Positions 7,186 through 52,571 of a DNA stretch of 64,000 bases are shown in pieces. The position numbers and the translations under genes were made by a program. This DNA is from a virus. The notes under the pieces were generated by a model. That model saw only the letters and a list, made by a program, of their open reading frames with translations, had not been told where the DNA came from and did no database searches. The stretch is from IMG/VR virus record IMGVR_UViG_3300049255_000405; one strand, written 5' to 3'. Position 1 is the stretch's first letter, and each line of letters begins with the position of its first letter.

Positions 7186-8510
7186 AGCTTCACCCAGTCA
7201 AAATCCACATCCAGAACTTCCAGAGCATCGACGATCTGGAAATTGAGGTGCATGGGTTCACATGCATCACCGGACCGTCGAACGTCGGCAAGAGCGCCAT
7301 CGTGCGCGCCACGTCTTCGGCCATCCTCAACAACCCGGTCGTCGGCATGGTGCGCAAAGGCGCGCAGTTCTGCACGGTGGAAATCTCGTCCGAGGGCTGG
7401 GGCTTCAAGTGGGAGAAGAACGACAAGGGAGTCAACCGCGTGTGGCTCCCCGGCAAAGACAAGCCGCTGGACAAGATCGGACAAGTCCAGGTCAAAGAGA
7501 TCTCGCAGATGGGCTTCGGCTCCATCGAAGTCGGTGACGACGAAATCCAGCCCTGGTTCGCGCCGCAGTTCCAATCGAAGGGGTGTGGACCTCTCTTCTT
7601 GCTGGACCAGTCGGGGCCGAGAGTAACCGACTTCCTGTCTGAAGTGTCGCGGCTGACTATCCTTCAGGACGCCATCGTTCTTGCCGCTCGAGGCAAACGC
7701 GGAGCGACAGACCAGGCCAAGAACAAGCACGAAGAGGCGGCCAACCTCAGGACGCTTCTGGCCCGCATCGGCGCCCTCGACACCCTGGAGAAGCTCGGGC
7801 GCGACCTCGAGGAACAGGCATCGAGCATCGAGCAGTACGAAGAGCGCATCACTCTTGGGGAATCACTCATCGCCAAGAGGGTGGAGGCCGAGCGGATTAT
7901 TCGGATACTCGAAAAGGTCGATGACGTAAAGATTCCCAAGGACGTAGCGGCCGAGCCCATTCAGAAGTTCCGCGACGTCTACCGCATCTGCGCTCTGCTC
8001 GAGAAGAGCGCGGCAAAAGTCCGCGACGTCCGGGACGTCTCTAAGGTGAAGGTTCCGGACCTTCTGGACGAAGAGATAGGCAAACTCCGCGAGCTGCAAC
8101 GGTTCGCTCAGCTGGAACCGCTACGCCAGTCGGTCAAGCTCCTGGAAGACCTCACGAAGGTCAAGGTTCCAGACTCCAAGAAACTCCGGGCCGAGATGGA
8201 GAAACTCTCGACCATCGCCGGGTACGCCACGAAGATAGAGGCTGCCCGAGCTTCGGTCGCTCTGCTCGATCAGGATGTACCGACCCCGGAGGATATCGAG
8301 GAGGTCAAGAGGCTTCGGCAACTCCTGGAACTCGACCAGCGCCTCCAAGAGGCGGCAGCCGATGTCATGACCCTCGAAGCCCAGGTCAAGCAGAACGACG
8401 CCGACCTGGAGAAAATCGACAAGGCCATCGCCGCCATTCCGGCTTGCCCAACGTGTCACCGACCGTGGAGCCCCGAGCACACCGGACGGCACAAGAAGCT
8501 GTCGGCCTAG
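7182..8510 (+). CDS. SMC/Rad50/SbcC-like ATPase N-terminal half: head N-lobe plus coiled coil ending in a CxxC hook
   Basis: GTGA overlap with recA-like stop; GPSNVGKSA P-loop after beta-rich N-terminus; long coiled coil; C-terminal IPACPTCHRPW. Confidence 0.6.
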   Translation: MKLHPVKIHIQNFQSIDDLEIEVHGFTCITGPSNVGKSAIVRATSSAILNNPVVGMVRKGAQFCTVEISSEGWGFKWEKNDKGVNRVWLPGKDKPLDKIGQVQVKEISQMGFGSIEVGDDEIQPWFAPQFQSKGCGPLFLLDQSGPRVTDFLSEVSRLTILQDAIVLAARGKRGATDQAKNKHEEAANLRTLLARIGALDTLEKLGRDLEEQASSIEQYEERITLGESLIAKRVEAERIIRILEKVDDVKIPKDVAAEPIQKFRDVYRICALLEKSAAKVRDVRDVSKVKVPDLLDEEIGKLRELQRFAQLEPLRQSVKLLEDLTKVKVPDSKKLRAEMEKLSTIAGYATKIEAARASVALLDQDVPTPEDIEEVKRLRQLLELDQRLQEAAADVMTLEAQVKQNDADLEKIDKAIAAIPACPTCHRPWSPEHTGRHKKLSA

Positions 8511-17873: not shown

Positions 17874-18581
17874 ATGAAGACGCAGACCAAGACCGAAATC
17901 CGCAACAACACGGCCAAGGCCACCAAGTTGCTGCGGGGCATCGACAACGAGGCGGCAGCGATCGCCAAGGACCAGGCGAAGCTCAACCAGCGCGTCGAGA
18001 ACGTGAAGAAGAGCGTGACCGTGGTCGCGTCCCTGCTCGGCGGCATCTCGAATACGGCCCTGGCGGCTCCCGTGGCTCCGGCCAAGCCCGCTCCGGCTGC
18101 CAAGAAGACGGCGGCGAAGCCCGCCAAGCCGGCCAAGCCCGCGAAGAAGGCGGCGGCCAAGCTCGCGAAGGCGGCGGCCAAGAAGGCAGCCAAGACGGCC
18201 AAGAAGGCAGCGGCCAAGGCAGCCCCGGCGAAGAAGGCGGCGAAGCCGGCGGTCGCCGCGAAGCCGGGCGAGCGTCCGCCGCTCAAGTCCCTCATCAACG
18301 GCACGCTCGACGCCGTGTCCAACGAGTGGACCCCCGCGGCCGAGATCTACAAGCAGGTGTGCGCCAAGGCCGGCTACTTCTCGCGCCAGTCGCTCTACAA
18401 CGCGCTCAAGGACGAGAAGTCGTACGAGAAGCAGGGCGAGGGCGCTGCGGCGAAGTTCCGCCGGGTCGCGGGAGCCTCGGCTTCGGCCAAGGCCGCTCCG
18501 GCGACCAAGACAACCGACGAGGAGGCCGACAAGTTCGTCGAGAAGTCGACGACCAACCCGGCCACCGCGGCGGCGACCTGA
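17874..18581 (+). CDS. Histone H1-like / AlgP-like Lys-Ala-Pro repeat DNA-binding protein
   Basis: GGAGGA RBS; central AKPAPAAKKTAAKPAKPAKPAKKAAAKLAKAAAKKAAK... repeats flanked by structured ends. Confidence 0.65.
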   Translation: MKTQTKTEIRNNTAKATKLLRGIDNEAAAIAKDQAKLNQRVENVKKSVTVVASLLGGISNTALAAPVAPAKPAPAAKKTAAKPAKPAKPAKKAAAKLAKAAAKKAAKTAKKAAAKAAPAKKAAKPAVAAKPGERPPLKSLINGTLDAVSNEWTPAAEIYKQVCAKAGYFSRQSLYNALKDEKSYEKQGEGAAAKFRRVAGASASAKAAPATKTTDEEADKFVEKSTTNPATAAAT

Positions 18582-18585
18582 GACT

Positions 18586-18660
18586 CGGGAACTGGAGTTC
18601 CCACCAGGCTAATAACCTGGGGCTTCGCAGCCATCGCAGGTTCGATTCCTGCCGGTTCGC
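18586..18660 (+). other. tRNA-like cloverleaf element (possible tRNA pseudogene, tRNA-like ncRNA or terminator cluster)
   Basis: Canonical T-arm GCAGG-TTCGATT-CCTGC, anticodon-like arm CCAGG-CTAATAA-CCTGG, D-like arm GGGA-ACTGGAGT-TCCC with U8/A14/GG, extra hairpin GGCT-TCGC-AGCC; no base-paired acceptor stem. Confidence 0.3.
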
Positions 18661-18756
18661 CGGAAGGCGAACTGCACGAGATGCTCTTCTGCTCGGCTTC
18701 TAAACACGAGGCCGAGCGAAGGCATACTTCGTAAAGCTCGAACCGCGTTACGTAAC

Positions 18757-21022: not shown

Positions 21023-21694
21023 TCAGAGCGACGCAGGGACCGCACTGCGCAGAAGATTCTGAACCTGCGCGCGGATGTCGCGAATGGTCTTGCTCGAGAC
21101 CTTGCGACCGCCCCACGAAAGGGCTTCACGAATGACGTCGGGGTTGGCCCCGGAACGAGCGGCGCGGAGATAGCGCGCGATTTCCCACATGCCCTGCTTG
21201 CGCAGCGTGGCCTCGACCTCTTCCATGTGCTCGGTGAGAGAGTCGGTGGCCTGGGGATCGGGCGCGGCGACGTCGATGGTGTCGAGCATCGTGCGACTGT
21301 CGTCCGAGCTGTGCGGGGCGTCGATGGAATCGCGCTCCTTGTCGTAGCGGCGCTTGCGGTGCACGAGGTTAATGCACACGTTGTTGGCCACCATGTAGAC
21401 GTAGTGGCCGAAGCTGGATTTGCGCGGGTCGTGCGCCGACCGCGTGTAGTTCTTGTGGATGATGGCGACGTAGACCTCTTGGATCAACTCCTCCATCGGC
21501 ACGTCTTCCACCTTGAAGAACTTGTGCACGATGCGGATGATGTCCTTCTCCTTCGCGACGACGTCGACCCCGAGAGGAGTCTTGCGATCGTCATCGGCGA
21601 GGCGAGGCCAAGGTAGCCTATCGGGCGTCTTCTTGAGGGACTTTCCAGGAACTTGAATGGTCTTTGACCGTTGGCCACCGCTGACAACGCCCAT
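21023..21694 (-). CDS. Sigma-70 family (ECF-like) RNA polymerase sigma factor
   Basis: Region 2-like ELIQEVYVAIIHKNYTRS...FGHYVYMVANNVCINLVHRKRRYDKE and region 4-like C-terminus; GGAGG 8 nt upstream of ATG 21694; the remaining N-terminal half of the 485 aa track ORF looks non-coding. Confidence 0.7.
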   Translation of the reverse strand: MGVVSGGQRSKTIQVPGKSLKKTPDRLPWPRLADDDRKTPLGVDVVAKEKDIIRIVHKFFKVEDVPMEELIQEVYVAIIHKNYTRSAHDPRKSSFGHYVYMVANNVCINLVHRKRRYDKERDSIDAPHSSDDSRTMLDTIDVAAPDPQATDSLTEHMEEVEATLRKQGMWEIARYLRAARSGANPDVIREALSWGGRKVSSKTIRDIRAQVQNLLRSAVPASL

Positions 21695-21792
21695 GTTCGC
21701 GACCTCCGAAATGCGAAATGCGGAAGGCGTTAACCCCCGCCGATCTATCGCCTGTCCGAGCGCACTTTTCGGACGATCGTTGCAGTTTACCA

Positions 21793-21804
21793 CGCCAATT
21801 GGCG
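21793..21804. promoter_or_regulatory. Perfect 12-bp palindrome CGCCAATTGGCG in the divergent intergenic region, candidate operator
   Basis: Seen directly; about 35 bp upstream of ATG 21839 and about 100 bp upstream of the sigma gene start. Confidence 0.3.
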
Positions 21805-21838
21805 GCGTGCAAGCTGTTTTGTAAGGTCCAAGTATCCT

Positions 21839-22438
21839 ATGGGAACCGACGAGAAAGCCGACTACCTGCGCGAATGCATGTCCGACCCGGCGCTCGTGAA
21901 CCAGCCAATCCCAATCGACCAGTTTAGCCGTGCGTTCTGCGTGGTGTGTGGATACAAGCCCTGCGTTCGAAGCCGGGCCAACACCATGGTTTTTACGGAA
22001 CGAGTGGCTACCTGGCAACCTCGGCTGTTCACGAATGTCCCGAGAGCGGACGACAACGACCCGAACTATGCCCGGATACGGGCGAAGAACTTCCAGAGCG
22101 TGGACGAGCCTCTGGTGGTCAATACTCAAGCGGTCGCAGCTCCCGCGCCCACTCAGGCGCCAGCTCCGCAACCGCCGGACCCGCCGGTACATTCCACACC
22201 CGATCGACCTACGGAATCTCCTGTTCAGCAGGTTCAGACACCGCCGGCGCCCGTCCCCTTGGTCGCACAGCCTGCTCCTATGACGCAGGCCGCTAGCGTT
22301 AGCGCACCGCATCAGGAACCGACGCTCGATAATACTCCATTCGCCGGTGGGATTGTGCTGCCAGGCAAACCAGTCGACAAGAAAGAAGACAAATTCGTGG
22401 AGCCCGGCTCCACCTTCACTTTCGGCGACGATGACTGA
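21839..22438 (+). CDS. Hypothetical protein with Pro/Ala-rich linker
   Basis: Track ORF. Confidence 0.5.
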   Translation: MGTDEKADYLRECMSDPALVNQPIPIDQFSRAFCVVCGYKPCVRSRANTMVFTERVATWQPRLFTNVPRADDNDPNYARIRAKNFQSVDEPLVVNTQAVAAPAPTQAPAPQPPDPPVHSTPDRPTESPVQQVQTPPAPVPLVAQPAPMTQAASVSAPHQEPTLDNTPFAGGIVLPGKPVDKKEDKFVEPGSTFTFGDDD

Positions 22439-23297
22439 CAAGAAAGAAGGACCGCCGACCTGGGGTGAGGACATTTTCACCCTGGTGACCGCCCGCCAGT
22501 TGGGCTCGCAGCAGCTCGTCGAGCATGCCGAAGCTCAAATTGAGCGCCGCTACAGGCTCGAGATGCGCGAGAAGTTCCAGCGCGACCCGCGCGTCCGGCA
22601 GGCGCTGATAGAGTCGGCCGAGTGCTTGCTATCCGAAGGGACGTACGACTCCGTCCGCGGCCTGATGGTCGATGTGCTCCGCGCCGGCACCGAAGAAGTC
22701 TTCAACAGGATTCTGCACGAGCTGCTCGAAGAACTCGACGTGATGCACAAGCGCGAGCCTTCGGCGTATCTCGTAAGCCATCAGGACGGCAAAGTCCTGA
22801 TGCCGATCACGGACAAAGACGTCTACACGCCTCCTCCTTATGTTGGAGAGGACGGCATCACTCGGCCTGCGAAGCCGATCCTGCATCCGGCCATCTCAGC
22901 GCCGCTCACAATGCTGGCATTCGAGCAGGGTCGGAAGAACGAGGCCATCACTCGCGCCGTTGCCGCCGGCGCTCCGGCTGCAGTCGAACACCTCGTCATG
23001 GGGCCGGACGCCATACTCGAGCGCGCGAGGGTGCTCTTGCGAACTCAAGGGGTGACAGTTGAGCCATTAGAGAATGGCACCCCAGCAACTATCGAGGTCG
23101 GCAGGGAGCATGTCGACGACATGCTTCAAGCTCCGAATTACAATTTCCACCGCTCGCAAATGTACGGCTCACTTCTCGCCAAGAAGGTGCTGAATCTCTT
23201 GCGCGGGCAGGGCCGCTGCGACTTGAAGTCCGCGATCCTGAAGAAGGGCTCCAAGGAGCAGTGGTACGAAATCACGCTCGACTGGGCAGCGACTTAG
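22431..23297 (+). CDS. Hypothetical protein (288 aa)
   Basis: ATGACTGA overlap with the preceding gene; internal ATG of track ORF 22347..23297. Confidence 0.55.
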   Translation: MTDKKEGPPTWGEDIFTLVTARQLGSQQLVEHAEAQIERRYRLEMREKFQRDPRVRQALIESAECLLSEGTYDSVRGLMVDVLRAGTEEVFNRILHELLEELDVMHKREPSAYLVSHQDGKVLMPITDKDVYTPPPYVGEDGITRPAKPILHPAISAPLTMLAFEQGRKNEAITRAVAAGAPAAVEHLVMGPDAILERARVLLRTQGVTVEPLENGTPATIEVGREHVDDMLQAPNYNFHRSQMYGSLLAKKVLNLLRGQGRCDLKSAILKKGSKEQWYEITLDWAAT

Positions 23298-38217: not shown

Positions 38218-38658
38218 TCAGTGCTTGGAAGCGCCGCCGCAGTTCCAGCCCATTGCCTGCACGTCAGCCGAGGTCTTGGCACCGAGCAGATCGTTGCAGG
38301 TGAGGCCCTGCTGGGTCTTGGGGTTGCGGATGACGCGGTTGGCCTGCGCGAGCGACAGAACCTTGGCGCAATCCGCCTGCTGGGCGCAGCCCATGGCGGC
38401 CATCTGAGCGCATGCCTTGGCGCACGGATCCGTGGGAGCCGGAGGAGCTGCATCCTGCGCCGGAGTCGGAGCGGGAGCTGCATCGACCGCAGGCGTCGGC
38501 GTGGGGGCCGAATCCATGGTCGGGACAGGCGGCGGAGGGCTTCCGTCGGGTCCTCCGTCCGGTGCCGGTGGGTTGGGCGGGGTCGGAGGGCACCCCGCCA
38601 TGCCGAGCGTCGACACGGCCAGGAAGAGCCCGAGAAGGGGGATCGCTGTCTTCTTCAT
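38218..38658 (-). CDS. Proline-rich lipoprotein (possible outer-membrane spanin-like component)
   Basis: MKKTAIPLLGLFLAVSTLGMAGC signal with lipobox; PPNPPAPDGGPDGSPPPPVP; C-terminal Cys pairs. Confidence 0.55.
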   Translation of the reverse strand: MKKTAIPLLGLFLAVSTLGMAGCPPTPPNPPAPDGGPDGSPPPPVPTMDSAPTPTPAVDAAPAPTPAQDAAPPAPTDPCAKACAQMAAMGCAQQADCAKVLSLAQANRVIRNPKTQQGLTCNDLLGAKTSADVQAMGWNCGGASKH

Positions 38659-39527
38659 CACGCAGCCGCCTTCTGGACCTGGACGTCCATCACGTAAAGC
38701 TCCCAGGCCGCCTTGACCCACGCCTCGGAAACGAGGCAGCGACCGTTGTCACACCAGCCGGTACCCCAGCTGTTGGTGAGGATGAAGGTGCGGGTTCCGT
38801 CCGCGTTGGTGGTGTAGCCCGACAGGTAGATGGCGTGGCCACCGCCGTTCGGGTCGTTCGTGTTCGGAGGCTGCGCCACCTGGCCCGGCTGCAGCTGCTC
38901 GAACGCCGTGTCGACGAACGCCGCGACGTAGACCGGGAAACCGGCGGCGAGAGCCGCAGCCACCTGATCCGAAACGTTCGCTGCACTCGGGTCGATGGCG
39001 TACTCGCCCGTGACGATGGTGGTGCCAGCTGCCTGGAGCTGGTTGGCGTCCACCTCGTTGTTGACGTTCGCCGGCTGAGCCGTCGTGTCAGCATCCGACC
39101 AGATGTCGGAGTTGCGGCCGTCCGGAGTCGGGCCCTGCATCGGAGCAACGCCGAACTGCGCGCATGCCGTGAACACGTCCGCGGGCTCGGCGCCCGAGTC
39201 GGTGAGAAGCGGCAGGGGCTGACCCGCCGGCGTCTGCGCCGCGCGCTCGATTCCTCGAGTAGCGGCGTACGTCTCGCGCGGCGAAGGCTCGAACCCGATC
39301 TGGATGCCCGCCTTGCGGCAAGCTGTGGAGGTGCTGCCCGACAGCGAGTGCGCCGTGCAGGAGCCCGTCTGGCCCTGATCGAGCCGCGGGGGCTCCCACT
39401 GGGACAGGTCGACGGACGCCGGAACGGTGGCCGCAAGGAGTGCGGCAATCGCCGGGTGGGTGGCCGCCGCTTTCTTGGAGGCGACCTTCGACGGATGACT
39501 GCGCTTTGCACCCTTTGCGAACGGCAT
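38658..39527 (-). CDS. Papain-like (C1 family) cysteine peptidase, secreted
   Basis: QGQTGSCTAHS (catalytic Cys context), GGHAIYLSGY (His), NSWGTGWCDNG (Asn/Trp); weak N-terminal signal. Confidence 0.7.
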   Translation of the reverse strand: MPFAKGAKRSHPSKVASKKAAATHPAIAALLAATVPASVDLSQWEPPRLDQGQTGSCTAHSLSGSTSTACRKAGIQIGFEPSPRETYAATRGIERAAQTPAGQPLPLLTDSGAEPADVFTACAQFGVAPMQGPTPDGRNSDIWSDADTTAQPANVNNEVDANQLQAAGTTIVTGEYAIDPSAANVSDQVAAALAAGFPVYVAAFVDTAFEQLQPGQVAQPPNTNDPNGGGHAIYLSGYTTNADGTRTFILTNSWGTGWCDNGRCLVSEAWVKAAWELYVMDVQVQKAAA

Positions 39528-39950
39528 TTACTTGGCTCCCGCTGCCTTCTGGGCTCGGACGTTGGACTGCAGCGTCTTGAAGTTCGCGAGGAGAGAGACC
39601 GACACGCAATTGGGCAGGCCGTACGCCGGCTTGCCGGAACCACATTTCATGTCGCTCGCCGCCACGGCCGCGCCAGCTTCCTGCGGCTGGTCGTAGTAAT
39701 TGATGATGCTGGCGATGATCTGCTCGACATCAGCCAGGGTCGAGCCGATGCACGCGCCGGTGATCTTGAGCGGGTCGGTCACGCCTTGGAACATCTCGGC
39801 GATGACGCAGCTGGCGATCTGGCCAACGTCCGTCGTCACCTGGCCGCTATTGCTGGCCCACCAGCCACAGCCAGTCTGCGTTGCTGTGGTGCCGCCGATA
39901 GCGACACCCATACCCACGATGATTGCGATTGGAGCCAGTTTGCGAATCAC
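39528..39950 (-). CDS. N-terminal-TM / secreted Cys-containing protein (possible inner-membrane spanin-like)
   Basis: MIRKLAPIAIIVGMGVAIGG TM; TAA/ATG junction with the peptidase gene. Confidence 0.45.
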   Translation of the reverse strand: MIRKLAPIAIIVGMGVAIGGTTATQTGCGWWASNSGQVTTDVGQIASCVIAEMFQGVTDPLKITGACIGSTLADVEQIIASIINYYDQPQEAGAAVAASDMKCGSGKPAYGLPNCVSVSLLANFKTLQSNVRAQKAAGAK

Positions 39951-40399
39951 TTGCCACCTCCATCAGCCGCCGGCGCAGCAGGTGCCGGGGTGGGCGTTTT
40001 GCCCTGGGAAGACTTGTGCGCGATGAGGTGGGCATGGCACGCAGCGCCCGCGCCAGCTGACGACAGCGCCATGACGCCAGCGATGATGGCGTTCAGAATG
40101 GACGAGCCGTTGACACCGGAAGCGCCCTGCAGCGACAGACCGAAGGCCGTCAGGAATGAACCAGCCAGAGTCAGGTAGGGGATCCACGCCTTAGGCGTGG
40201 TCGCGACCCCGAAGAGACTGCCAGTGTTGACGGCCTGTCCAATGAAGCCCGCGAGCAGAGCGACGATGGTCACGATCGCCGTCTGTGTCGAAATCGTGAC
40301 AGCCGCAGCGGGGGCCGCAGTCTGCGCGAAAGCGAGGCTCGCGAAGGACATGACGACGCCGAAAGTGAGGGCGAACGTCAGGGTAGATCGGAACTTCAT
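39947..40399 (-). CDS. Multi-TM membrane protein with signal peptide (holin-like candidate)
   Basis: MKFRSTLTFALTFGVVMSFASLAFAQ plus 3 hydrophobic helices; ATGA overlap with the downstream gene. Confidence 0.45.
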   Translation of the reverse strand: MKFRSTLTFALTFGVVMSFASLAFAQTAAPAAAVTISTQTAIVTIVALLAGFIGQAVNTGSLFGVATTPKAWIPYLTLAGSFLTAFGLSLQGASGVNGSSILNAIIAGVMALSSAGAGAACHAHLIAHKSSQGKTPTPAPAAPAADGGGK

Positions 40400-40504
40400 G
40401 GGAAATACCTCGCCCCAGGAGGCCCATGAAAGTTCTAGCCGCTTACGGGGTACAGCCGTAAATCCAGAAGGGGATTATGTAGCCAATTGGAGGAGATAGA
40501 ACAA

Positions 40505-41113
40505 ATGAAGTCGCTGAAGGTTGTCTCGGTCAGTCTGGTGTTCGTTGCAGCGCTCGTGGGCTGCACTTCCGACGCGTTCACGTCGGGCGACCTGCCGGAC
40601 TCGGGAACCGACTCCGGAGACCCGACCGAAGGTTCGGTCGGAAACGACTCCGGCGGCGACAGCGCCAAGGTGGGAGATCCCGATACTGGCGTGGATGCGG
40701 GCCCAGGGATCGACACCGGCACGACGGACACCGGGACGCCCGACTCCGGCACCGACACGGGGACGACAGACTCCGGGACAGTGGATTCCGGCACCGACAC
40801 GGGGACGACAGACTCCGGCGCCGACGCCGCCGACGCCGCCGACGCGAGCTGTTTCACGGTCCCCTCTGGCTCCACCGGAGTCACCTGCGACTCCTGCATG
40901 AAGTCGTCGCCGTGCGCCAGTCAGCGAGACATCTGCATCGCTCAGTGCGGTCCCTCGGGATGCGCCGACGCCTGGGAGGGTTTCCTCGCCTGCATCGACC
41001 TGAACCCGGATGCCGGCGGGACTCTCTGCGCCAGCACCTGGCTCTCGGACAGCCCCGTGGAGGCCAACCTAGCCTCCTGCGGCAACACCTTCTGCAGCAG
41101 CCAGTGTCAGTAG
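40505..41113 (+). CDS. Lipoprotein with (D/T)(S/T)GT tandem repeats and Cys-rich C-terminal domain, on the opposite strand to its neighbours (moron-like)
   Basis: GGAGG RBS; MKSLKVVSVSLVFVAALVGC lipobox; 12 Cys in the last 80 aa. Confidence 0.65.
   Translation: MKSLKVVSVSLVFVAALVGCTSDAFTSGDLPDSGTDSGDPTEGSVGNDSGGDSAKVGDPDTGVDAGPGIDTGTTDTGTPDSGTDTGTTDSGTVDSGTDTGTTDSGADAADAADASCFTVPSGSTGVTCDSCMKSSPCASQRDICIAQCGPSGCADAWEGFLACIDLNPDAGGTLCASTWLSDSPVEANLASCGNTFCSSQCQ
40696..40848 (+). repeat. Tandem ~45-nt coding repeat (TCCGGCACCGACACGGGGACGACAGACTCCGG twice) plus GCCGACGCC triplets
   Basis: Near-identical copies at 40744-40776 and 40787-40818. Confidence 0.6.
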
Positions 41114-41114
41114 G

Positions 41115-41741
41115 TCACTTGGGCTTCTGAACGAGGCCCATGCGCTCGGCAAGAGAGCGCATGACAGCATCACGCTCCTGGTCGTCCAGTTCATCCCAAG
41201 TCTTGCCGGCAGCGGAAGCCTTCGGCGAGGCGAGCTTCGCCTCGAGGCGAGCTTTACCGATCTGAGCCGCCGGGTGATGCTGGATAGCCGGAACGATGGT
41301 CACCGTAGGCTGGGCGGGCACCGTATCCGCAGGGGCGACCCCAGGAACGATGGAGCGATTCACCAGCAATTGGTTGCCGGACACGTTTGTCTTGGTGGCG
41401 ACTTCGTACACGTGAGTGACGGTTTCGAAAACGACGGCGACACGCTTGCCGTAGTCGGCATACCAAAGATCACGAGTGGCCTGGTCCATGGCGTGGCTGA
41501 TGTAAGCCGAGGGGAGCGCTGCCATCACCAAGGGCTGAGACGGGTCCTTGGACCAAAGACTACCCTGGATGGCATCTCCGAAATCGGAGAACGACACATC
41601 ATTCGGGAGCGTGTACTTGACGCCCGCCACGTAGAACACGCCGGCGCGAAGTATGTATTGCTGGCCAACAATATCGATGCGGTAGTTCAGATCCAACTGA
41701 CCGGCCGCGCCGACACCGTTATGGTAGTAGATCCCGAACAT
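41115..41741 (-). CDS. Hypothetical structural-module protein
   Basis: Track ORF, contiguous with structural genes. Confidence 0.5.
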   Translation of the reverse strand: MFGIYYHNGVGAAGQLDLNYRIDIVGQQYILRAGVFYVAGVKYTLPNDVSFSDFGDAIQGSLWSKDPSQPLVMAALPSAYISHAMDQATRDLWYADYGKRVAVVFETVTHVYEVATKTNVSGNQLLVNRSIVPGVAPADTVPAQPTVTIVPAIQHHPAAQIGKARLEAKLASPKASAAGKTWDELDDQERDAVMRSLAERMGLVQKPK

Positions 41742-44700
41742 TATTGTCTACCCGTAATGATGAAGGTGAAACCGCCGGACTGATTCGCGTTGTTGAAGTT
41801 AATGGACGTTGAGCTGATACCGCTCGATAGAACTGCCTGAGCCTGACTGAACGAAGACGTGTACATCGAGGCGAGCTGCAGGGACGGCCCCAGACCAGAC
41901 ACGAAGAAGAGCGGAGTGATTGCACAGGCAATCGATCCCTGACCGGCTCCAGTATCTGTGTTCGACGGGTTGGCATAGAAGTTAATAAGGATCTGTCCGC
42001 CAAACCCTCCGCCACCGTTGAAAATGGCATAGCTGTGCACGTTCCAGGAGTCGTACTCCTGGAACGTGGGGTGTCCACCACTGTCAGTAGTGACAAAGAT
42101 CGTGCCCCACGCCTTGATGACGTTTGCGCCGTTGACGGTGTTCTGAAGCGCCGCGGCGTTGTATGTGTCACCCAGGTGGGTGAGAGCGATGCCGTTGTCG
42201 CTGAATCCCTGGATGCAGGTCCAGCTCCCGTCCGACCAGTTTCCCCCGGGCTGGAAAACTGAGAAGTTGTACATGTACCCGGCCCCGTAGTTGCTACTCC
42301 CGAAGAGGAAGTTGCTTCCAGACCAGACGGTCATGAAGGCGTTCTGTCCAGGAACGTCAGGAACCCACACGCTTCCGTTCCAACTGGCGTTAGTTGTGAT
42401 GGCATACCAGTCGTTGTTGCCGGGCCCGTATCCGCCGTTGCCGGAAAAATTCCAGCCTCGGTAGTGGCGAATACAGACTCCTTGGCCTTGACCACCGAGA
42501 GCCCACGTGATGTGACCGTTATTCCCATCCGGAGCGACGGCGGCTGCGTTAGCAATTTGCACCGAAGTCCCAGAGATCACGTTGACGATCTGGAAATGCC
42601 CGTTGTTGTTGCCGTTGGCAGCTCCAGTGAAATACAGGTACATGCCCTGCATGTTGTTCGTCATACTGGCGAGGCCCGTGATCGTGGCGAGCCCGGCAGA
42701 CACAGCCGAAATGGTGCAACCTCCGTTGCGGCCAGCAGCGAACAAATAATCCGAGCCCTGCGGCCCAGTGCCGTACTCCGCTACCAGGATGCGCATTCCG
42801 CTGTCCGGGTGTGCCGGAACTGAGATGCGCGCGGCCAACTCAGAGGCGAGAGTCGCGGGAGCCAGCTCTCCGAGACGGAGATTGTTCGCCGTAACGATCC
42901 CGGCGTTGCCCTGGTTTCCGTTGATGGAGAACGGGAGAATGCTGTTCGGAGCGCTCGCGGGACCGTTTGGGGCCCACGTCGCCCACGGCGTGTTGTCGGC
43001 GGCTCCGCGGTGCCAATGGAGGAATTGGCTGCCGAAACCGCCGCCCGCGAGCATTTGAACAGCGTTGGCAGCCACGCCGTTGACGTCTTTCGCCCACGCA
43101 ACACCATTCCAGGCCGCGTTGATCGTGAACCAATAGTCCGTCTCGTTGGACGGATTCATCTGTGCGTAGATGCGGATGCTGGGGCTCGCGGTGGGGCTCT
43201 GAGCCTCCCAAATCAGAGTGAAGGTACTCGGCGCGGTCTGCGCGAGAAACCGCGGGATGAGATTCTCGTTGCTGGCGGTCGATTGCGTGCCGGCCAGGAT
43301 GAAGGCCAGCGCTCCGTTGAGCGCTCCGGACGGGTCGAAACCAACGGGCGGCGTGCCCGTACCGAGCGGAGAACCAGCAAACGTGAACGGGCTGGCGACC
43401 GCGGGGCCCGCGTAGAGAAACTCCATTTTGGGCTGGCCCGTGACGGTGCTCTGCCCGATGTAAACGGCGGACGCCGATTGCCCGGCCGTATCTTTCCTCC
43501 AGTTGATGGGGAACCCGACAGGACCGTTCCAATACGCGTTGCAGGTGACCCACAGTCCAGCTTGCGAGTCAGCGAAGAGCCGCATGATCTGCTGAGCATT
43601 GGAGCCGGTCAGACCAGCGACCGACACTCCCTCCCACAGGAGGGTCATGCCACTGCCTTGCGAACTCGAGAACGGCGTAACGATGCGCGGCGTCTGGTTC
43701 GCCTGCAGGTACCCGAGGTTACGCGCTCCGAGTGTGAGCGAGTCGATGCTCAGCACGTCGACGATCTTGCGCAGCAAGTCTGGATTGATCTTGCCGTCCG
43801 GACCGAGAAGCGCCGAGATGCCAAGATTTTCCGTGCCCGCCCCAGGCTGTGCCAGCTGCGGGTCGTCGGTGGCAAGGAACTTCTCGGTGGTGGTCTCGAT
43901 GTTCTCCGGCACCTCCCCGAACTCCATCATCTCGGGGATCATCGCGTGCACGACGGGAGGCGTGACCGCCTCGATGCCGATTGCCGTAGTACCCGTGACG
44001 CTGGTGCCTGACAGACCGAGCTTCGCCATCACGGCAGAAGAACCCGAGACCGTGATGCTCGCCGGAGTTCCGTACGGATCGTCGGTGGTGTGGTCGGGGC
44101 AAACGAAGGCGATTTCTTCGACCGTCGTCGCATTGCCGAATGGCTTGGCCACCACGGAGCCCGAATAAACTCCAGGCACAAGGCCGAGTTTGTCGAGGGT
44201 AGTCGTGAAGTTGTTGGTCGGCAGCGGGCTGGCGCCGAAGAGGTCACCCGCCATGATCTGCACGGTGGAACTCGGACCGCTCGTCAGATGGCTGGTGATT
44301 TGGAGAGTCCCGAAATTCGAAACCGCAGCCGATCCCTGGGCAGCCTGTCCGGCCGTGCTGATGGCGGCGTTGATGAAGTTCACTAGGTCGGATGTCGAGT
44401 AGACGCCCGTGGTCGGATAGATCTGAATCGGCGTGTTGCCGTTCAGAACGATGAAGAACATGTCCTGGCCAGTGATGAACTGCCAGGGCCCAGCAACAGC
44501 ACCGATGACGCCGCCACGACCGGCCTCGGTCCCCGCCGGGAATCCAGCTCCAGCGGCTGCCGCGTTCCAGGCCGCATTCACGGCGCTGATGACGTCTTGC
44601 GCACCGGTCGGCGCCACGCCAAACGTGATAGTGAGGACGTAGGTCTGGATGCTGAAGTTGTGGGACGGATTCGGATAGAGCGCCGGATTGACCGTATTGA

Positions 44701-45607
44701 CCGTGACCGTGAAGCTGTCGCTCGTGGTCAGCGAAGAAAAGTTGCCGCCACTCGTGATGACCTTGCCGGGTACGGAGCCCTGACGGACGTACGACACCAC
44801 GAACTTCGGATTGTTCGAGATGCCCGGGATTTGCTGCAGCCGTCCGTAGATGGACTGGCCAGGCGGATAGAGCGGTATGTTTCCGAGGCCGCTGACGTTG
44901 ATCTGAATGGGGGTCTGCGTGATCGCCGGCGACGAGTCCGGGTTGCGGAGCTGGATGAATCCGCCGAAACCATCCGTCGACTGCGTGATGATGCCGCGCA
45001 CCGGCGAAGAAATGCCCGTGACAGTGGCCGTGTTTCCTGGCGCCAATCCGAGCGCAGTGCACACGCCGACCGTGACGTCATTGACCGTCAGGAAGGCAGA
45101 AGAGCCAGTCGTGTAGCCCGAGGGACCCGCAGACTGGAGAACGAGCTGGCCGTTGATGTTTTGCGCGACCGGAGATGACGGGTTGACTCCGGCGACAGTG
45201 AGGGCCGCGTTGATACGCGCTGCCACCTTGGACGTCGTGATGTACGGATTGCCGCCGATGTTGACGACGTCGCTCGGTTGGAACGTGATGAGGACAGGGT
45301 TGCTCGAGTTGACGTTCGGGAGCGTGATGGTGAAAGACGCGCCCGCGACGACGGGCGACACGAACGGACCCTGCGCGCCGATGATGAACGCCGACGCATC
45401 CGACTCCGCGCCGCCGGGCGTCTGCGTGATGGTCTGCTGCAGGAATTCGTTGTAGTAGTTTTCCGAGATCGTGTTCTGGATGGTCTGAACAGTGCCGCCA
45501 GGAACGTCCGGCGTGCCGAACGGAATGGGCGTCGCCACACCGATCGTGTCGATCCGGGTGAAGTACGACCGCTGGTCCTTGATCTGTTCTTTGCGCGGCT
45601 GAGTCAT
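41741..45607 (-). CDS. Large virion structural protein (1288 aa), beta-rich, tail/baseplate-like
   Basis: Long S/T/G/N-rich ORF with 1-nt overlap to the downstream gene. Confidence 0.7.
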   Translation of the reverse strand: MTQPRKEQIKDQRSYFTRIDTIGVATPIPFGTPDVPGGTVQTIQNTISENYYNEFLQQTITQTPGGAESDASAFIIGAQGPFVSPVVAGASFTITLPNVNSSNPVLITFQPSDVVNIGGNPYITTSKVAARINAALTVAGVNPSSPVAQNINGQLVLQSAGPSGYTTGSSAFLTVNDVTVGVCTALGLAPGNTATVTGISSPVRGIITQSTDGFGGFIQLRNPDSSPAITQTPIQINVSGLGNIPLYPPGQSIYGRLQQIPGISNNPKFVVSYVRQGSVPGKVITSGGNFSSLTTSDSFTVTVNTVNPALYPNPSHNFSIQTYVLTITFGVAPTGAQDVISAVNAAWNAAAAGAGFPAGTEAGRGGVIGAVAGPWQFITGQDMFFIVLNGNTPIQIYPTTGVYSTSDLVNFINAAISTAGQAAQGSAAVSNFGTLQITSHLTSGPSSTVQIMAGDLFGASPLPTNNFTTTLDKLGLVPGVYSGSVVAKPFGNATTVEEIAFVCPDHTTDDPYGTPASITVSGSSAVMAKLGLSGTSVTGTTAIGIEAVTPPVVHAMIPEMMEFGEVPENIETTTEKFLATDDPQLAQPGAGTENLGISALLGPDGKINPDLLRKIVDVLSIDSLTLGARNLGYLQANQTPRIVTPFSSSQGSGMTLLWEGVSVAGLTGSNAQQIMRLFADSQAGLWVTCNAYWNGPVGFPINWRKDTAGQSASAVYIGQSTVTGQPKMEFLYAGPAVASPFTFAGSPLGTGTPPVGFDPSGALNGALAFILAGTQSTASNENLIPRFLAQTAPSTFTLIWEAQSPTASPSIRIYAQMNPSNETDYWFTINAAWNGVAWAKDVNGVAANAVQMLAGGGFGSQFLHWHRGAADNTPWATWAPNGPASAPNSILPFSINGNQGNAGIVTANNLRLGELAPATLASELAARISVPAHPDSGMRILVAEYGTGPQGSDYLFAAGRNGGCTISAVSAGLATITGLASMTNNMQGMYLYFTGAANGNNNGHFQIVNVISGTSVQIANAAAVAPDGNNGHITWALGGQGQGVCIRHYRGWNFSGNGGYGPGNNDWYAITTNASWNGSVWVPDVPGQNAFMTVWSGSNFLFGSSNYGAGYMYNFSVFQPGGNWSDGSWTCIQGFSDNGIALTHLGDTYNAAALQNTVNGANVIKAWGTIFVTTDSGGHPTFQEYDSWNVHSYAIFNGGGGFGGQILINFYANPSNTDTGAGQGSIACAITPLFFVSGLGPSLQLASMYTSSFSQAQAVLSSGISSTSINFNNANQSGGFTFIITGRQ

Positions 45608-51282: not shown

Positions 51283-51702
51283 CTACCCGCTGGATGCGAC
51301 GTCGTGAACAGTGAAGATTCCCTGATAAAAATAGACCGTGAGCGGGTAGACTGCGCTCAAAGGAGACACCTGCACCGAAATGCTTCCCGTGGAATTTATG
51401 ACCCTGTGAATCCTGATGCTTCCGTGACCTGAAATGGTCTGGACCACTCCTCCGCCAGAGATGGGTTCCCCACCGAGAGCGAACTGGACGAGCAACTGTA
51501 TCGGCTGTTCGACGAACACACTCAGTGCAACATGGGCGAGAAACGTGTTTCCAAGACTAGGCGAAATCCCAATCCCGTTGGTAGTGGCGTTGGAGAAGTC
51601 ACCCTGGTTTTCCCATGCGATATTCTGAGGGGTCCCGTTCGTCCAGATGTACGCGGCGTCCGGATCAGTGAGTCGGAACAGGTTGGAAAGCTCGCCGTAC
51701 AT
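51283..51702 (-). CDS. Small beta-rich protein, member 1 of three tandem ~140 aa paralogs (possible C1q/TNF-like tip domain)
   Basis: N-terminal MYG(E/Q)L and C-terminal YF(Y/F)QG(I/A)F(T/S)V shared by the 3 ORFs. Confidence 0.5.
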   Translation of the reverse strand: MYGELSNLFRLTDPDAAYIWTNGTPQNIAWENQGDFSNATTNGIGISPSLGNTFLAHVALSVFVEQPIQLLVQFALGGEPISGGGVVQTISGHGSIRIHRVINSTGSISVQVSPLSAVYPLTVYFYQGIFTVHDVASSG

Positions 51703-51708
51703 GCTGCC

Positions 51709-52134
51709 TCACGTATCGAGGTCTTGGATGGTGAAGGCGCCTTGATAGAAAGACGCCGTGCACGGAAGCGAGGGCAGAGACACCAAGTTCACCCCGAGTC
51801 TCACGGAATCGCCAGTCCTTAGGGCCACCATCTTTTGCAGGCTCACCACTCGAGACCCGCCGAAAACTGAGCATGTGATCCCAGCGATATTCCCTCCCGC
51901 TGTGGAGAGAAACTGGAAAAAGAGTTGTATCGGCTGGCCCGTGTAAACAGACACGCTGGCCTTGAGCAGAAACTCACCGGCACCGGACACAACGAATCCA
52001 TTGTTCGACACAGTGACACCCGACAGGTCACTGCTTGACGTCCACGGGACTGCTTGTGTCTTGTATCTTGTCCAGGTGAGAGTTACCTCGGCGGGGTACA
52101 TCAAGCTGACGTCGTTGTAGAGCTGGCCGTACAT
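51709..52134 (-). CDS. Small beta-rich protein, paralog 2
   Basis: As above. Confidence 0.5.
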   Translation of the reverse strand: MYGQLYNDVSLMYPAEVTLTWTRYKTQAVPWTSSSDLSGVTVSNNGFVVSGAGEFLLKASVSVYTGQPIQLFFQFLSTAGGNIAGITCSVFGGSRVVSLQKMVALRTGDSVRLGVNLVSLPSLPCTASFYQGAFTIQDLDT

Positions 52135-52571
52135 CAGTTTATTCCTTCGACAGAAAAAGCTCCCTGGAAGAAATAGACTGTAATCGGACTAGGAATCGGA
52201 TTCGCAATGTTCACTTGCACAATGGCGGTGTCTTCCCCCGCAAGATAGCCCAGTTGCTGCAAGGAGACAGTCGTGACGCCCGGAAAAGCGTTTACGGTCA
52301 CACCTGCAACGGGCAGGACCACACCGTCCGTCTGAAATGAGAACACCAGTTCGACGGGCGTCGGCGAGTAGAAACTAATGCTCGCAGTGAGCGAATATTC
52401 GATCGTGGGACCGATTTGGAGACCGTTCCCATTCCGGTTTATCCCGTTGAACGAGCCGGAATTTCGCCACGGCACGATCTGAACCGCCGGAAGCGATACC
52501 CACGCGAGAGCTGCTCCCGGGTCGGTCATCGACCAGTCGCTGTACAACTCACCGAAAGTTCCGGGGTCCAC
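52134..52571 (-). CDS. Small beta-rich protein, paralog 3
   Basis: As above; GELYSDWSM...YFFQGAFSV. Confidence 0.5.
   Translation of the reverse strand: MDPGTFGELYSDWSMTDPGAALAWVSLPAVQIVPWRNSGSFNGINRNGNGLQIGPTIEYSLTASISFYSPTPVELVFSFQTDGVVLPVAGVTVNAFPGVTTVSLQQLGYLAGEDTAIVQVNIANPIPSPITVYFFQGAFSVEGIN

Follow-up and report, generated by a model that had tools for sequence, protein, structure and literature searches.

A predicted lipoprotein with a conserved anchor and a hypervariable cysteine-rich head, encoded at a fixed position beside the fibre-like gene of a large uncultured phage

Results

A solitary lipoprotein gene on the plus strand

The DNA analysed here, a stretch of 64,000 nucleotides (nt) from the IMG/VR virus record IMGVR_UViG_3300049255_000405, is called the window throughout. 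At 40505-41113 it carries a gene for a predicted lipoprotein of 202 amino acids (aa), which is the subject of this work. The gene, its product and its upstream region comprise the following features.

40456-40504, plus strand: conserved upstream, putatively regulatory region, from the alignment of the window with the related contigs L001, L005 and L003
40505-41113, plus strand: lipoprotein gene, 202 aa including the signal peptide, with ATG at 40505 and a TAG stop at 41111-41113
40505-40564, plus strand: type II signal peptide with the lipobox L-V-G-C, a rule-based match, the predicted lipidated first mature residue being Cys20
40565-40849, plus strand: acidic low-complexity tether of 95 aa (residues 21-115), recognised by composition
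40711-40818, plus strand: tandem repeat DTGTTDSGTxDSGT, from Tandem Repeats Finder
40850-41110, plus strand: head domain of 87 aa (residues 116-202), an orphan sequence with 12 Cys

The lipoprotein gene is real, and its product, as read from the sequence, conforms to the definition of a bacterial lipoprotein. Under a codon-usage model trained on the long genes of the window, the plus-strand frame at 40505-41113 scores 0.24, the best of the six frames (the runner-up scores 0.06), and it holds no internal stop. A GGAGGAG ribosome-binding site (RBS; 40489-40495) precedes the ATG at a spacing of 9 nt. The GC content of the gene is 0.677 versus 0.598 for the window, an excess that follows from a product rich in D, G, T, A, S and C, and its GC content at third codon positions (GC3), 0.84, lies inside the range of the neighbouring genes. 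An antisense open reading frame (ORF) at 40435-40899 on the minus strand was rejected as the coding frame, as it has a lower coding score, meets in-frame stops across the interval and is not what relatives conserve. The 202-aa product is annotated as a 'hypothetical protein' in NCBI, JGI and ENA (P0101), the longest contig measuring 240,015 bp.

Within 28,855-64,000 this is the sole gene on the plus strand, all other credible genes there being on the minus strand, including three small paralogues that fill a gap at 51.2-52.6 kb; the nearest other plus-strand gene is a dnaJ homologue at 27703-28815. A six-frame scan of the 64 kb for lipoboxes returned only two ORFs, the gene at 40505-41113 (plus) and a Pro-rich one at 38218-38661 (minus).

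The lipobox rule, of the PROSITE PS51257 type, requires K or R in the n-region, a hydrophobic core free of charges and the pattern [LVI][ASTVI][GAS]-C, its Cys occupying a position within 15-35. In the N-terminus, MKSLKVVSVSLVFVAALVGC, K2 and K5 lie in the n-region and are followed by a hydrophobic core without charge, SLVFVAALVGC forming residues 10-20; residues 1-20 share 90% identity with the orthologue in L001. The mature lipoprotein is 183 aa long. Its tether contains 22 D+E, 1 K+R and 64 G/S/T/P/A residues, and the first ~40 aa (CTSDAFTSGD...AKVGDPD) are conserved while the remainder is variable. Ten D[ST]G[TADN] motifs are spread across residues 32-106, and the tandem repeat within them has a period of 42 nt (14 aa), 2.6 copies, 86% matches and a score of 153, with an exact 32-nt duplication whose copies begin at 40745 and 40787, 42 nt apart. 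The 12 head cysteines fall in residues 116-201, separate from the lipobox Cys, and presumably form six disulfides. An earlier note on this DNA, written from its letters alone, had pointed to a lipobox, a 12-Cys C-terminal domain and a plus-strand gene with its own strong RBS, isolated among ~25 kb of minus-strand genes; all of this holds, and the isolation is even longer, at ~35 kb. The (D/T)(S/T)GT repeats that it described are likewise present, but the near-identical units measure 42 nt by Tandem Repeats Finder, not 45 nt.

The flanks of the gene are themselves conserved. The intergenic region that separates it from a divergent gene for a 150-aa protein measures 105 nt and contains CGTAAAT...TTATGTAG (40475-40482), CAATT and the GGAGGAG RBS. 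The arrangement GTAAAT...TTATGTAG-C/T-CAATTGGAGGAG is retained in the window, L001, L005 and L003 despite diverged coding sequence, and TTATGTAG occurs a single time in the 64 kb. We infer that this block acts as a promoter. The upstream region holds no sigma-70 consensus promoter, a null result that is uninformative as the phage carries a sigma-factor-like gene of its own. At the other end, the lipoprotein gene and its convergent neighbour have abutting or overlapping stop codons (-7 to +1 nt) in all five genomes compared. No intrinsic terminator was detected at the lipoprotein gene, and two hairpins beyond its stop do not stand above shuffled sequence (z -1.0). Since the upstream block is conserved and the gene lies on the opposite strand with abutting or overlapping stops, it is probably transcribed on its own, at a time differing from that of the convergent late operon.

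Sequence and structure searches

The gene is nearly without relatives in sequence collections. At the gene level, protein matches consisted of a fragment (P0001, 100%), the orthologue in L001 (P0002, 47%, covering the N-terminal half) and one match confined to the repeats. The head, searched with phmmer against 1.84 billion representatives, retrieved only its own fragment P0001 and a chance match to the repeat protein P0100. No family was assigned by Pfam (at a threshold of E <= 0.01), PHROGs, NCBIfam or PADLOC, which gave nothing beyond insignificant Myxococcus-type lines (E 0.42). Against 50,697 cultured phage records neither the region nor the gene found a DNA or a protein match, tblastn included, and target-alignment scans of metagenome, viral and genome contigs gave no match either; relatives were found through the neighbouring peptidase and fibre-like genes instead. 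A single-sequence AF2 (AlphaFold2) model was unusable, with a mean pLDDT of 44 and a pTM of 0.20, its head helices being of low confidence and not trustworthy.

Several candidate identities were rejected along the way. The product is not classed as the variable protein of a diversity-generating retroelement (DGR), as the 64-kb window, searched for a template repeat, contains no stretch of the gene in duplicate outside the gene itself. It is not an o-spanin, given a strand opposite to that of the lysis-like cassette and a linker that is acidic, not Pro-rich; judged by sequence, the Pro-rich lipoprotein at 38218-38661 would fit the o-spanin role better. A head motif common to the window and L066, C-x2-3-C-x4-C-x-D-x-W-x3-L-x-C, was equalled by shuffled sequences (z 0.1) and dismissed.

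The same slot is filled in every checkable member of the close clade

The five related contigs whose DNA reaches this slot (L001, L003, L004, L005 and L066) each carry exactly one opposite-strand lipobox gene there, between the fibre-side operon and the gene for the 150-aa membrane protein, and two ENA contigs that are available as gene calls without DNA have an opposite-strand gene at the slot as well, of 220 and 178 aa. The lipobox reads L[VI]GC or VGC in every slot orthologue.

L001: slot lipoprotein, 177 aa from ATG
L003 and L004: slot lipoprotein, 357 aa
L005: slot lipoprotein, 127 aa
L066: slot lipoprotein, 195 aa

Among more distant phages that share a neighbouring peptidase module, an opposite-strand lipoprotein lies near the tail genes of L017/L028 (166 aa) and L035 (109 aa), and L006 has an opposite-strand lipoprotein of 125 aa. 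In L008 (2444-3832, minus strand) a 462-aa opposite-strand lipoprotein, beside a Gly_rich_2 fibre gene, shares the motif after the Cys and the DSGT repeats; its head is multi-blade and propeller-like, with a repeated NVYWTN, and weakly matches Myxococcus SinM (E 1e-10, below the family cut-off). Many or most of the distant phages keep the peptidase module without an opposite-strand lipoprotein.

The lipoproteins compared follow a common design, namely a signal peptide with lipobox, a short, conserved stretch after the Cys that in most of them reads C-x-x-D/A-A/P-F-T, an acidic tether poor in K/R, and a head with an even number of cysteines. The head counts (12, 12, 12, 26, 10, 12, 6 and 2) are all even, as would fit an oxidising extracytoplasmic location. 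Tethers span 25-141 residues overall and 48-141 in the close clade, and their repeats differ by lineage, D(S/T)GT in the window and (SSG)n in L066. Since lineages use different repeats, the length and composition of the tether appear to matter more than its sequence.

The earlier note had expected the repeats to be prone to length variation, and across orthologues this is borne out (48-141 aa), but variation in copy number as such was not seen: the sole second copy of the gene, on the 920-bp contig L054 from a JGI sample distinct from that of L001 and L066, is 100% identical across the repeat. The note had also named what would count against its interpretation, a universally conserved structural gene with invariant repeats. 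The position is conserved indeed, yet the gene is not a structural one and its sequence is far from invariant.

Possible co-variation of the head with the tip of the fibre-like protein

The divergence of the lipoprotein is best described together with the genes on either side of it.

39947-40399, minus strand: 150-aa holin-like protein that has a signal peptide and some three hydrophobic segments, divergent from the lipoprotein gene
40685-42921: replacement block without detectable DNA similarity to L001, which takes in the lipoprotein tether and head, the 208-aa gene and, from the fibre-like gene, ~390 codons at the C-terminal end
41115-41741, minus strand: 208-aa middle gene, convergent with the lipoprotein gene, stops 1 nt apart, within the variable cassette
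41741-45607, minus strand: 1288-aa fibre-like protein, N-terminal ~880 aa conserved, C-terminus variable, the last 100 aa being encoded at 41744-42043

Between the window and L001, DNA identity stands at 94% in the replication genes and at 86% as far as 40684, is lost at 40685-42921 and then returns at 74% and 86%. The proteins that flank this block are 92-100% identical (DnaB 100%, SNF2 helicase 98%, peptidase 97%, the Pro-rich lipoprotein 97%, a 1616-aa protein 95.5%), the 150-aa membrane protein is 68% identical, the fibre-like protein 70% with its last ~92 residues unaligned, and the lipoprotein 47%, aligned in its N-terminus only. In sliding comparisons the fibre-like protein drops in identity from 0.93 (N-terminus) to 0.23 (C-terminus) and the lipoprotein from 0.90 to ~0.1; the two genes converge on one centre of divergence. 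One of the breakpoints is intragenic, inside the lipoprotein gene and just past its conserved N-terminal ~60 residues. The 150-aa protein, at 68% identity to L001:9468-9914 versus 92-97% for the next genes downstream, is unusually divergent, and the divergence hot spot therefore extends slightly past the lipoprotein on that side.

The pattern differs between L001 and the more distant L005, in which the fibre C-terminus is 42% identical to the very end, the middle gene is 45% identical and the head is also shared. In shuffle-controlled local alignments of the ten pairs formed by five genomes, with the last 100 residues taken as the fibre tip, the heads are significantly similar for L001-L005 only (z 13.4), and the fibre tips are likewise similar for L001-L005 only (z 31), such that head and fibre-tip similarity coincide in 10/10 pairs. 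Among the middle genes, similarity is shown not only by L001-L005 (z 35) but also by window-L066 (z 32). This is suggestive of a head that follows the fibre tip and not the middle gene.

Among 17 homologues of the 1288-aa protein the N-terminus is conserved, and both C-termini and lengths vary. The 1288-aa protein adjoins the 1616-aa protein, which has a weak PHROG match to a tail protein; it has no direct family or PDB match itself. The 208-aa gene, without a family match in Pfam, PHROG or NCBIfam, has no counterpart in L001, where a 98-aa gene is found instead, and is homologous to the 208-aa gene of L066 (L066:5238-5864; 30% identity, E 9e-20). Its C-terminal motif, W-x-E-L-x3-E/Q-x-D/E-x-V/M-M-x3-A-x-R/Q-M-G-L-V, is encoded in L003 by a separate 59-aa gene (7898-8077), and the window gene may be the fused form of what in L003 are two genes.

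A putative envelope or lysis module

Beyond the 150-aa gene lies a compact group of minus-strand genes for envelope-type proteins.

38218-39950, minus strand: remainder of the putative envelope/lysis module, of which the 150-aa gene is the first, comprising a 140-aa anchored protein, the Peptidase_C1 protein and the Pro-rich lipoprotein
38658-39527, minus strand: papain-family peptidase (Peptidase_C1) without a signal peptide
38218-38661, minus strand: Pro-rich, Cys-containing lipoprotein with a conserved C-terminus

The same three-gene set, in which an anchored or lipobox protein lies upstream of the peptidase and a Pro-rich lipoprotein downstream, follows the tail genes in many differing contigs (L002, L006, L007, L013-L017 and L055-L061), at times with an Rv2525c-like glycoside hydrolase. 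From its sequence features and the order of its genes, it looks like an undescribed lysis or envelope module.

The phage and its genome

The source is a large uncultured phage of ~240 kb with its own replication apparatus. The window encodes a family-A DNA polymerase, a DnaB-like helicase, a DnaG zinc ribbon, an SNF2 helicase, RecA, a RuvA C-terminal domain and a dCTP deaminase, and the syntenic relative L001 comes from a contig of 242,266 bp. The DNA polymerase is at most 33% identical to that of any cultured phage (50,697 records). Two further genes bear on regulation and strand context.

21023-22480: sigma-factor-like protein
27703-28815, plus strand: full-length DnaJ (J domain, CXXCXGXG and C-terminal domain)

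The dnaJ gene is the only other plus-strand gene near the long minus-strand run, and L003 has a DnaJ gene in the corresponding place. No integrase was found among the scanned ORFs of the window, which makes about a quarter of the ~240-kb genome visible. A search of 185,579 representative bacterial genomes detected neither the lipoprotein gene nor the peptidase next to it, and there is thus no sign of a prophage. As to the host, two scans of GTDB representative genomes yielded nothing, and the single tRNA and Rfam gave no clue; a hint at Myxococcus was rejected, as weak family echoes (E 0.42 for the lipoprotein) are not evidence.

Other observations concern genes elsewhere in the window. The single tRNA (18574-18661, plus strand) was called by ARAGORN as tRNA-Ile with anticodon AAT; at 88 nt it has an unusual size for a tRNA-Ile, and it overlaps the end of an ORF at 17874-18581. 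An 894-aa protein (30642-33326, minus strand) has domains of the major vault protein, MVP_shoulder (E 1.3e-25) and Vault_3 (E 7e-11), both above the Pfam cut-offs, and is kept beside the DnaB-like helicase in relatives (L001:1-817, L003:16162-18801 and L005:9796-12438). Among the full-text papers searched, 'major vault protein' and 'jumbo phage' occur together in a single one, which concerns Borgs. The three tandem paralogues at 51283-52571 (minus strand), of 139, 141 and 145 aa and starting MYGELSN..., MYGQLYN... and MDPGTFGELYS..., sit between structural-looking genes and are without a family assignment. Mobile-element content varies between near-identical relatives: the SNF2 helicase has 1038 aa in L001 (L001:4564-7680, with a faint LAGLIDADG match that is probably an intein) versus 690 aa in the window, a separate LAGLIDADG gene follows the SNF2 gene in L063 (4327-5406), and an extra 258-aa gene, GIY-YIG-like by eye, lies between the fibre-like and 1616-aa genes of L001 (14731-15507) and is absent from the window.

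Discussion

What can be read from these sequences comes close to establishing the product of 40505-41113 as a Sec-exported, lipid-anchored envelope protein that combines a conserved anchor, a disposable tether and a hypervariable disulfide-rich head, and that is encoded at a fixed position. Why a phage should keep such a protein next to its fibre-like gene is a different matter. The likeliest scenario, to which we give a probability of about 0.45, is by analogy with phage T5 Llp that of a superinfection-exclusion lipoprotein that masks the receptor. The infected cell would produce the lipoprotein, attach its lipid and deliver it to the envelope, with the tether giving the head reach from its membrane anchor. 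The head would then bind the same envelope component as the fibre tip of the phage, and the receptor would be switched off, such that the infected cell would not be superinfected and progeny would not be lost on cell debris, following the logic of 'lytic conversion' as in T5 Llp and in Cor of T1 and phi80. If the sequence of the tether matters little, its evolution by gain and loss of repeats would be explained; likewise, if the head is forced to change whenever the fibre tip changes receptor, this would explain their joint variation. The earlier note had already suggested a superinfection-exclusion surface protein, and this is still the best available reading, though one without a link by homology.

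Several points weigh against receptor masking. Neither sequence nor family connects the protein to Llp, Cor, Ltp, Bor or any defence or exclusion protein (Pfam, PHROG, NCBIfam, PADLOC and tblastn), the AF2 model gives no usable structure to argue from, and a long tether is absent from Llp and Cor, which are small. The neighbour is regarded as a fibre for its size, its position and its pattern of conserved N-terminus and variable C-terminus, not for homology. The co-variation contains one positive pair among ten, for which chance coincidence amounts to ~1 in 10, and it is confounded by physical adjacency, as any local recombination hot spot would produce the same pattern. Finally, the window and L066 have a middle gene in common and dissimilar heads.

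A wider version of the proposal would treat the last ~100 residues of the fibre, the middle gene and the lipoprotein head as one exchangeable cassette for host recognition and self-exclusion. Such a cassette may operate in these jumbo phages and, here and there, in more distant ones that share the peptidase module; the part of the lipoprotein that stays constant, its anchor and the stub of its tether, would serve as a universal 'socket' for new receptor-binding heads brought in by recombination. We consider this extension unlikely. Were it true, the heads would amount to a collection of small binders rich in disulfides, each of which would reveal the receptor used by its phage, and the system would be a non-homologous, modular counterpart of Llp and Cor.

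It is also conceivable, albeit doubtful, that the lipoprotein has no relation to the phage's own receptor and is an envelope-directed factor for host takeover or competition that resides in a recombination hot spot by the fibre tip. It could, on its tether, bind or inhibit some system of the host periplasm or outer membrane, or it could keep out other phages, bacteriocins or predators, and its fast variation would come from an arms race with the host. An orphan and hypervariable head accords with such a role, and so do the very different heads that the anchor carries in distant relatives (for example the SinM-like beta-propeller in L008) and the unlike heads beside the common middle gene of the window and L066; the divergence of the 150-aa neighbour (68% vs >92% for the flanks) suggests a general hot spot. 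However, the sole pair with similar heads is also the sole pair with similar fibre tips, and the place by the fibre cluster matches that of known exclusion lipoproteins. The opposite flank of the gene raises the question of an accessory to the lysis module, that is, a spanin-like or lysis-timing lipoprotein working with the adjacent envelope proteins. Here the shared 105-nt intergenic region with the divergent holin-like 150-aa gene, a neighbourhood rich in envelope proteins, and the wide conservation after the tail genes of many phages of a module made of the peptidase and flanking lipoproteins would all be in keeping. We nevertheless think it improbable, as the gene lies on the strand opposite to the module, the module already has a conserved Pro-rich lipoprotein (97% to L001), a hypervariable head is not expected in a partner of lysis proteins that are 92-97% conserved, and most of the distant phages have the peptidase module without any opposite-strand lipoprotein.

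The earlier note put the gene forward as a moron candidate with a possible part in lysogenic conversion; in the manner of lambda Bor, it would then be expressed from a prophage and convert the surface of the lysogen. This appears very improbable now. An opposite-strand lipoprotein gene with its own RBS near lysis-like genes does recall lambda bor, and the GC content of 0.68 vs 0.60 for the window could be taken for a sign of foreign origin. Yet morons are sporadic, and this slot is filled by an opposite-strand lipoprotein in every clade member that can be checked (5/5 contigs with DNA); GC3 is in the native range, the high GC following from amino-acid composition; and a ~240-kb contig with its own replication machinery, no integrase among the scanned window ORFs and no relative in 185,579 representative genomes lend no support to lysogenic conversion. 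That the protein is a partner of the fibre, either binding or capping fibre tips or forming a component of the virion, has hardly any probability in our view. It does adjoin the fibre tip and co-varies with it, but tail fibres assemble in the cytoplasm and a protein with a lipobox is exported and anchored, which leaves contact only after lysis, and the gene is on the strand opposite to all structural genes.

If exclusion by receptor masking is indeed the function, receptor-binding proteins paired with cognate lipoproteins that block the receptor would be found not only in the coliphages T5, T1 and phi80 but also in large uncultured environmental phages, and the pairing would be built there from unrelated parts in a modular fashion, in which the anchor is constant, the tether disposable and the head exchangeable. 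The small Cys-rich heads could then serve, in co-folding or in pull-downs, to find the receptors of phages for which there is no host in culture. Should this interpretation be wrong, the locus would still offer a clean case of a hypervariable envelope protein at a fixed position, and it would still mark an intragenic recombination breakpoint right after the conserved ~60 N-terminal residues.

Comparison with known systems

The closest parallel in layout is found in T5, in which llp (plus strand) adjoins the receptor-binding gene oad (minus strand), opposite in strand to the late genes and with divergent promoters. BF23 has an Llp that is non-homologous to that of T5 but equivalent in function, and that makes up a module together with the receptor-binding protein of BF23 (PMC4728585); BF23 Llp blocks BtuB and T5 Llp blocks FhuA (PMC9586334). 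As in these phages, the lipoprotein of the window belongs to a phage without sign of lysogeny and is encoded next to a putative host-recognition gene, opposite to a long run of late structural genes. T5 Llp is made as a precursor of 77 aa, however, and at 62 aa the mature protein has no long tether, whereas the mature protein here has 183 aa, a 95-aa acidic tether and 12 Cys. Moreover, llp is arranged head-to-head with oad, whereas the gene described here lies tail-to-tail with the fibre operon, with one small gene between, and it has no sequence similarity to T5 or BF23 Llp.

Cor, known from T1, phi80, N15 and HK022, is likewise a lipoprotein, and its gene adjoins a tail-fibre cluster as the window gene adjoins the fibre-like one. 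In unrelated FhuA-dependent phages the cor cassette directly follows the tail-fibre cluster, and by its presence or type it tracks which receptor is used (PMC13164509). Cor differs from the protein of the window in being small and co-oriented with two upstream membrane-protein genes, and there is no homology between them. Ltp of the Streptococcus phage TP-J34 consists of a lipid anchor, a Ser-rich low-complexity spacer and a C-terminal effector domain that mediates exclusion (PMC3952083), a three-part layout that is also found in the window lipoprotein. Unlike the latter, Ltp is expressed from a prophage in a Gram-positive host, targets the incoming tape-measure protein and carries a helical repeat domain without cysteines, which is not matched here at the Pfam threshold used.

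The gene also shares with lambda bor, an opposite-strand lipoprotein moron by the lysis genes, its orientation and its position adjoining lysis-type genes. Bor is sporadic, however, is expressed from prophages and has bacterial homologues (Iss), whereas the gene of the window occupies a fixed slot and has none in the representative bacterial genomes. By sequence, then, the window lipoprotein is not a member of Llp/Cor, Ltp, Bor, the spanins or DGR targets, and at best it works like Llp, Cor or Ltp. For the physical design alone, LpoB provides a further model without homology. In this outer-membrane lipoprotein a long disordered linker permits a target in the inner membrane to be reached, and the same succession of lipid anchor, long disordered linker and small globular domain is predicted here; by analogy, ~95 residues of tether could be enough to bridge a large part of a periplasm.

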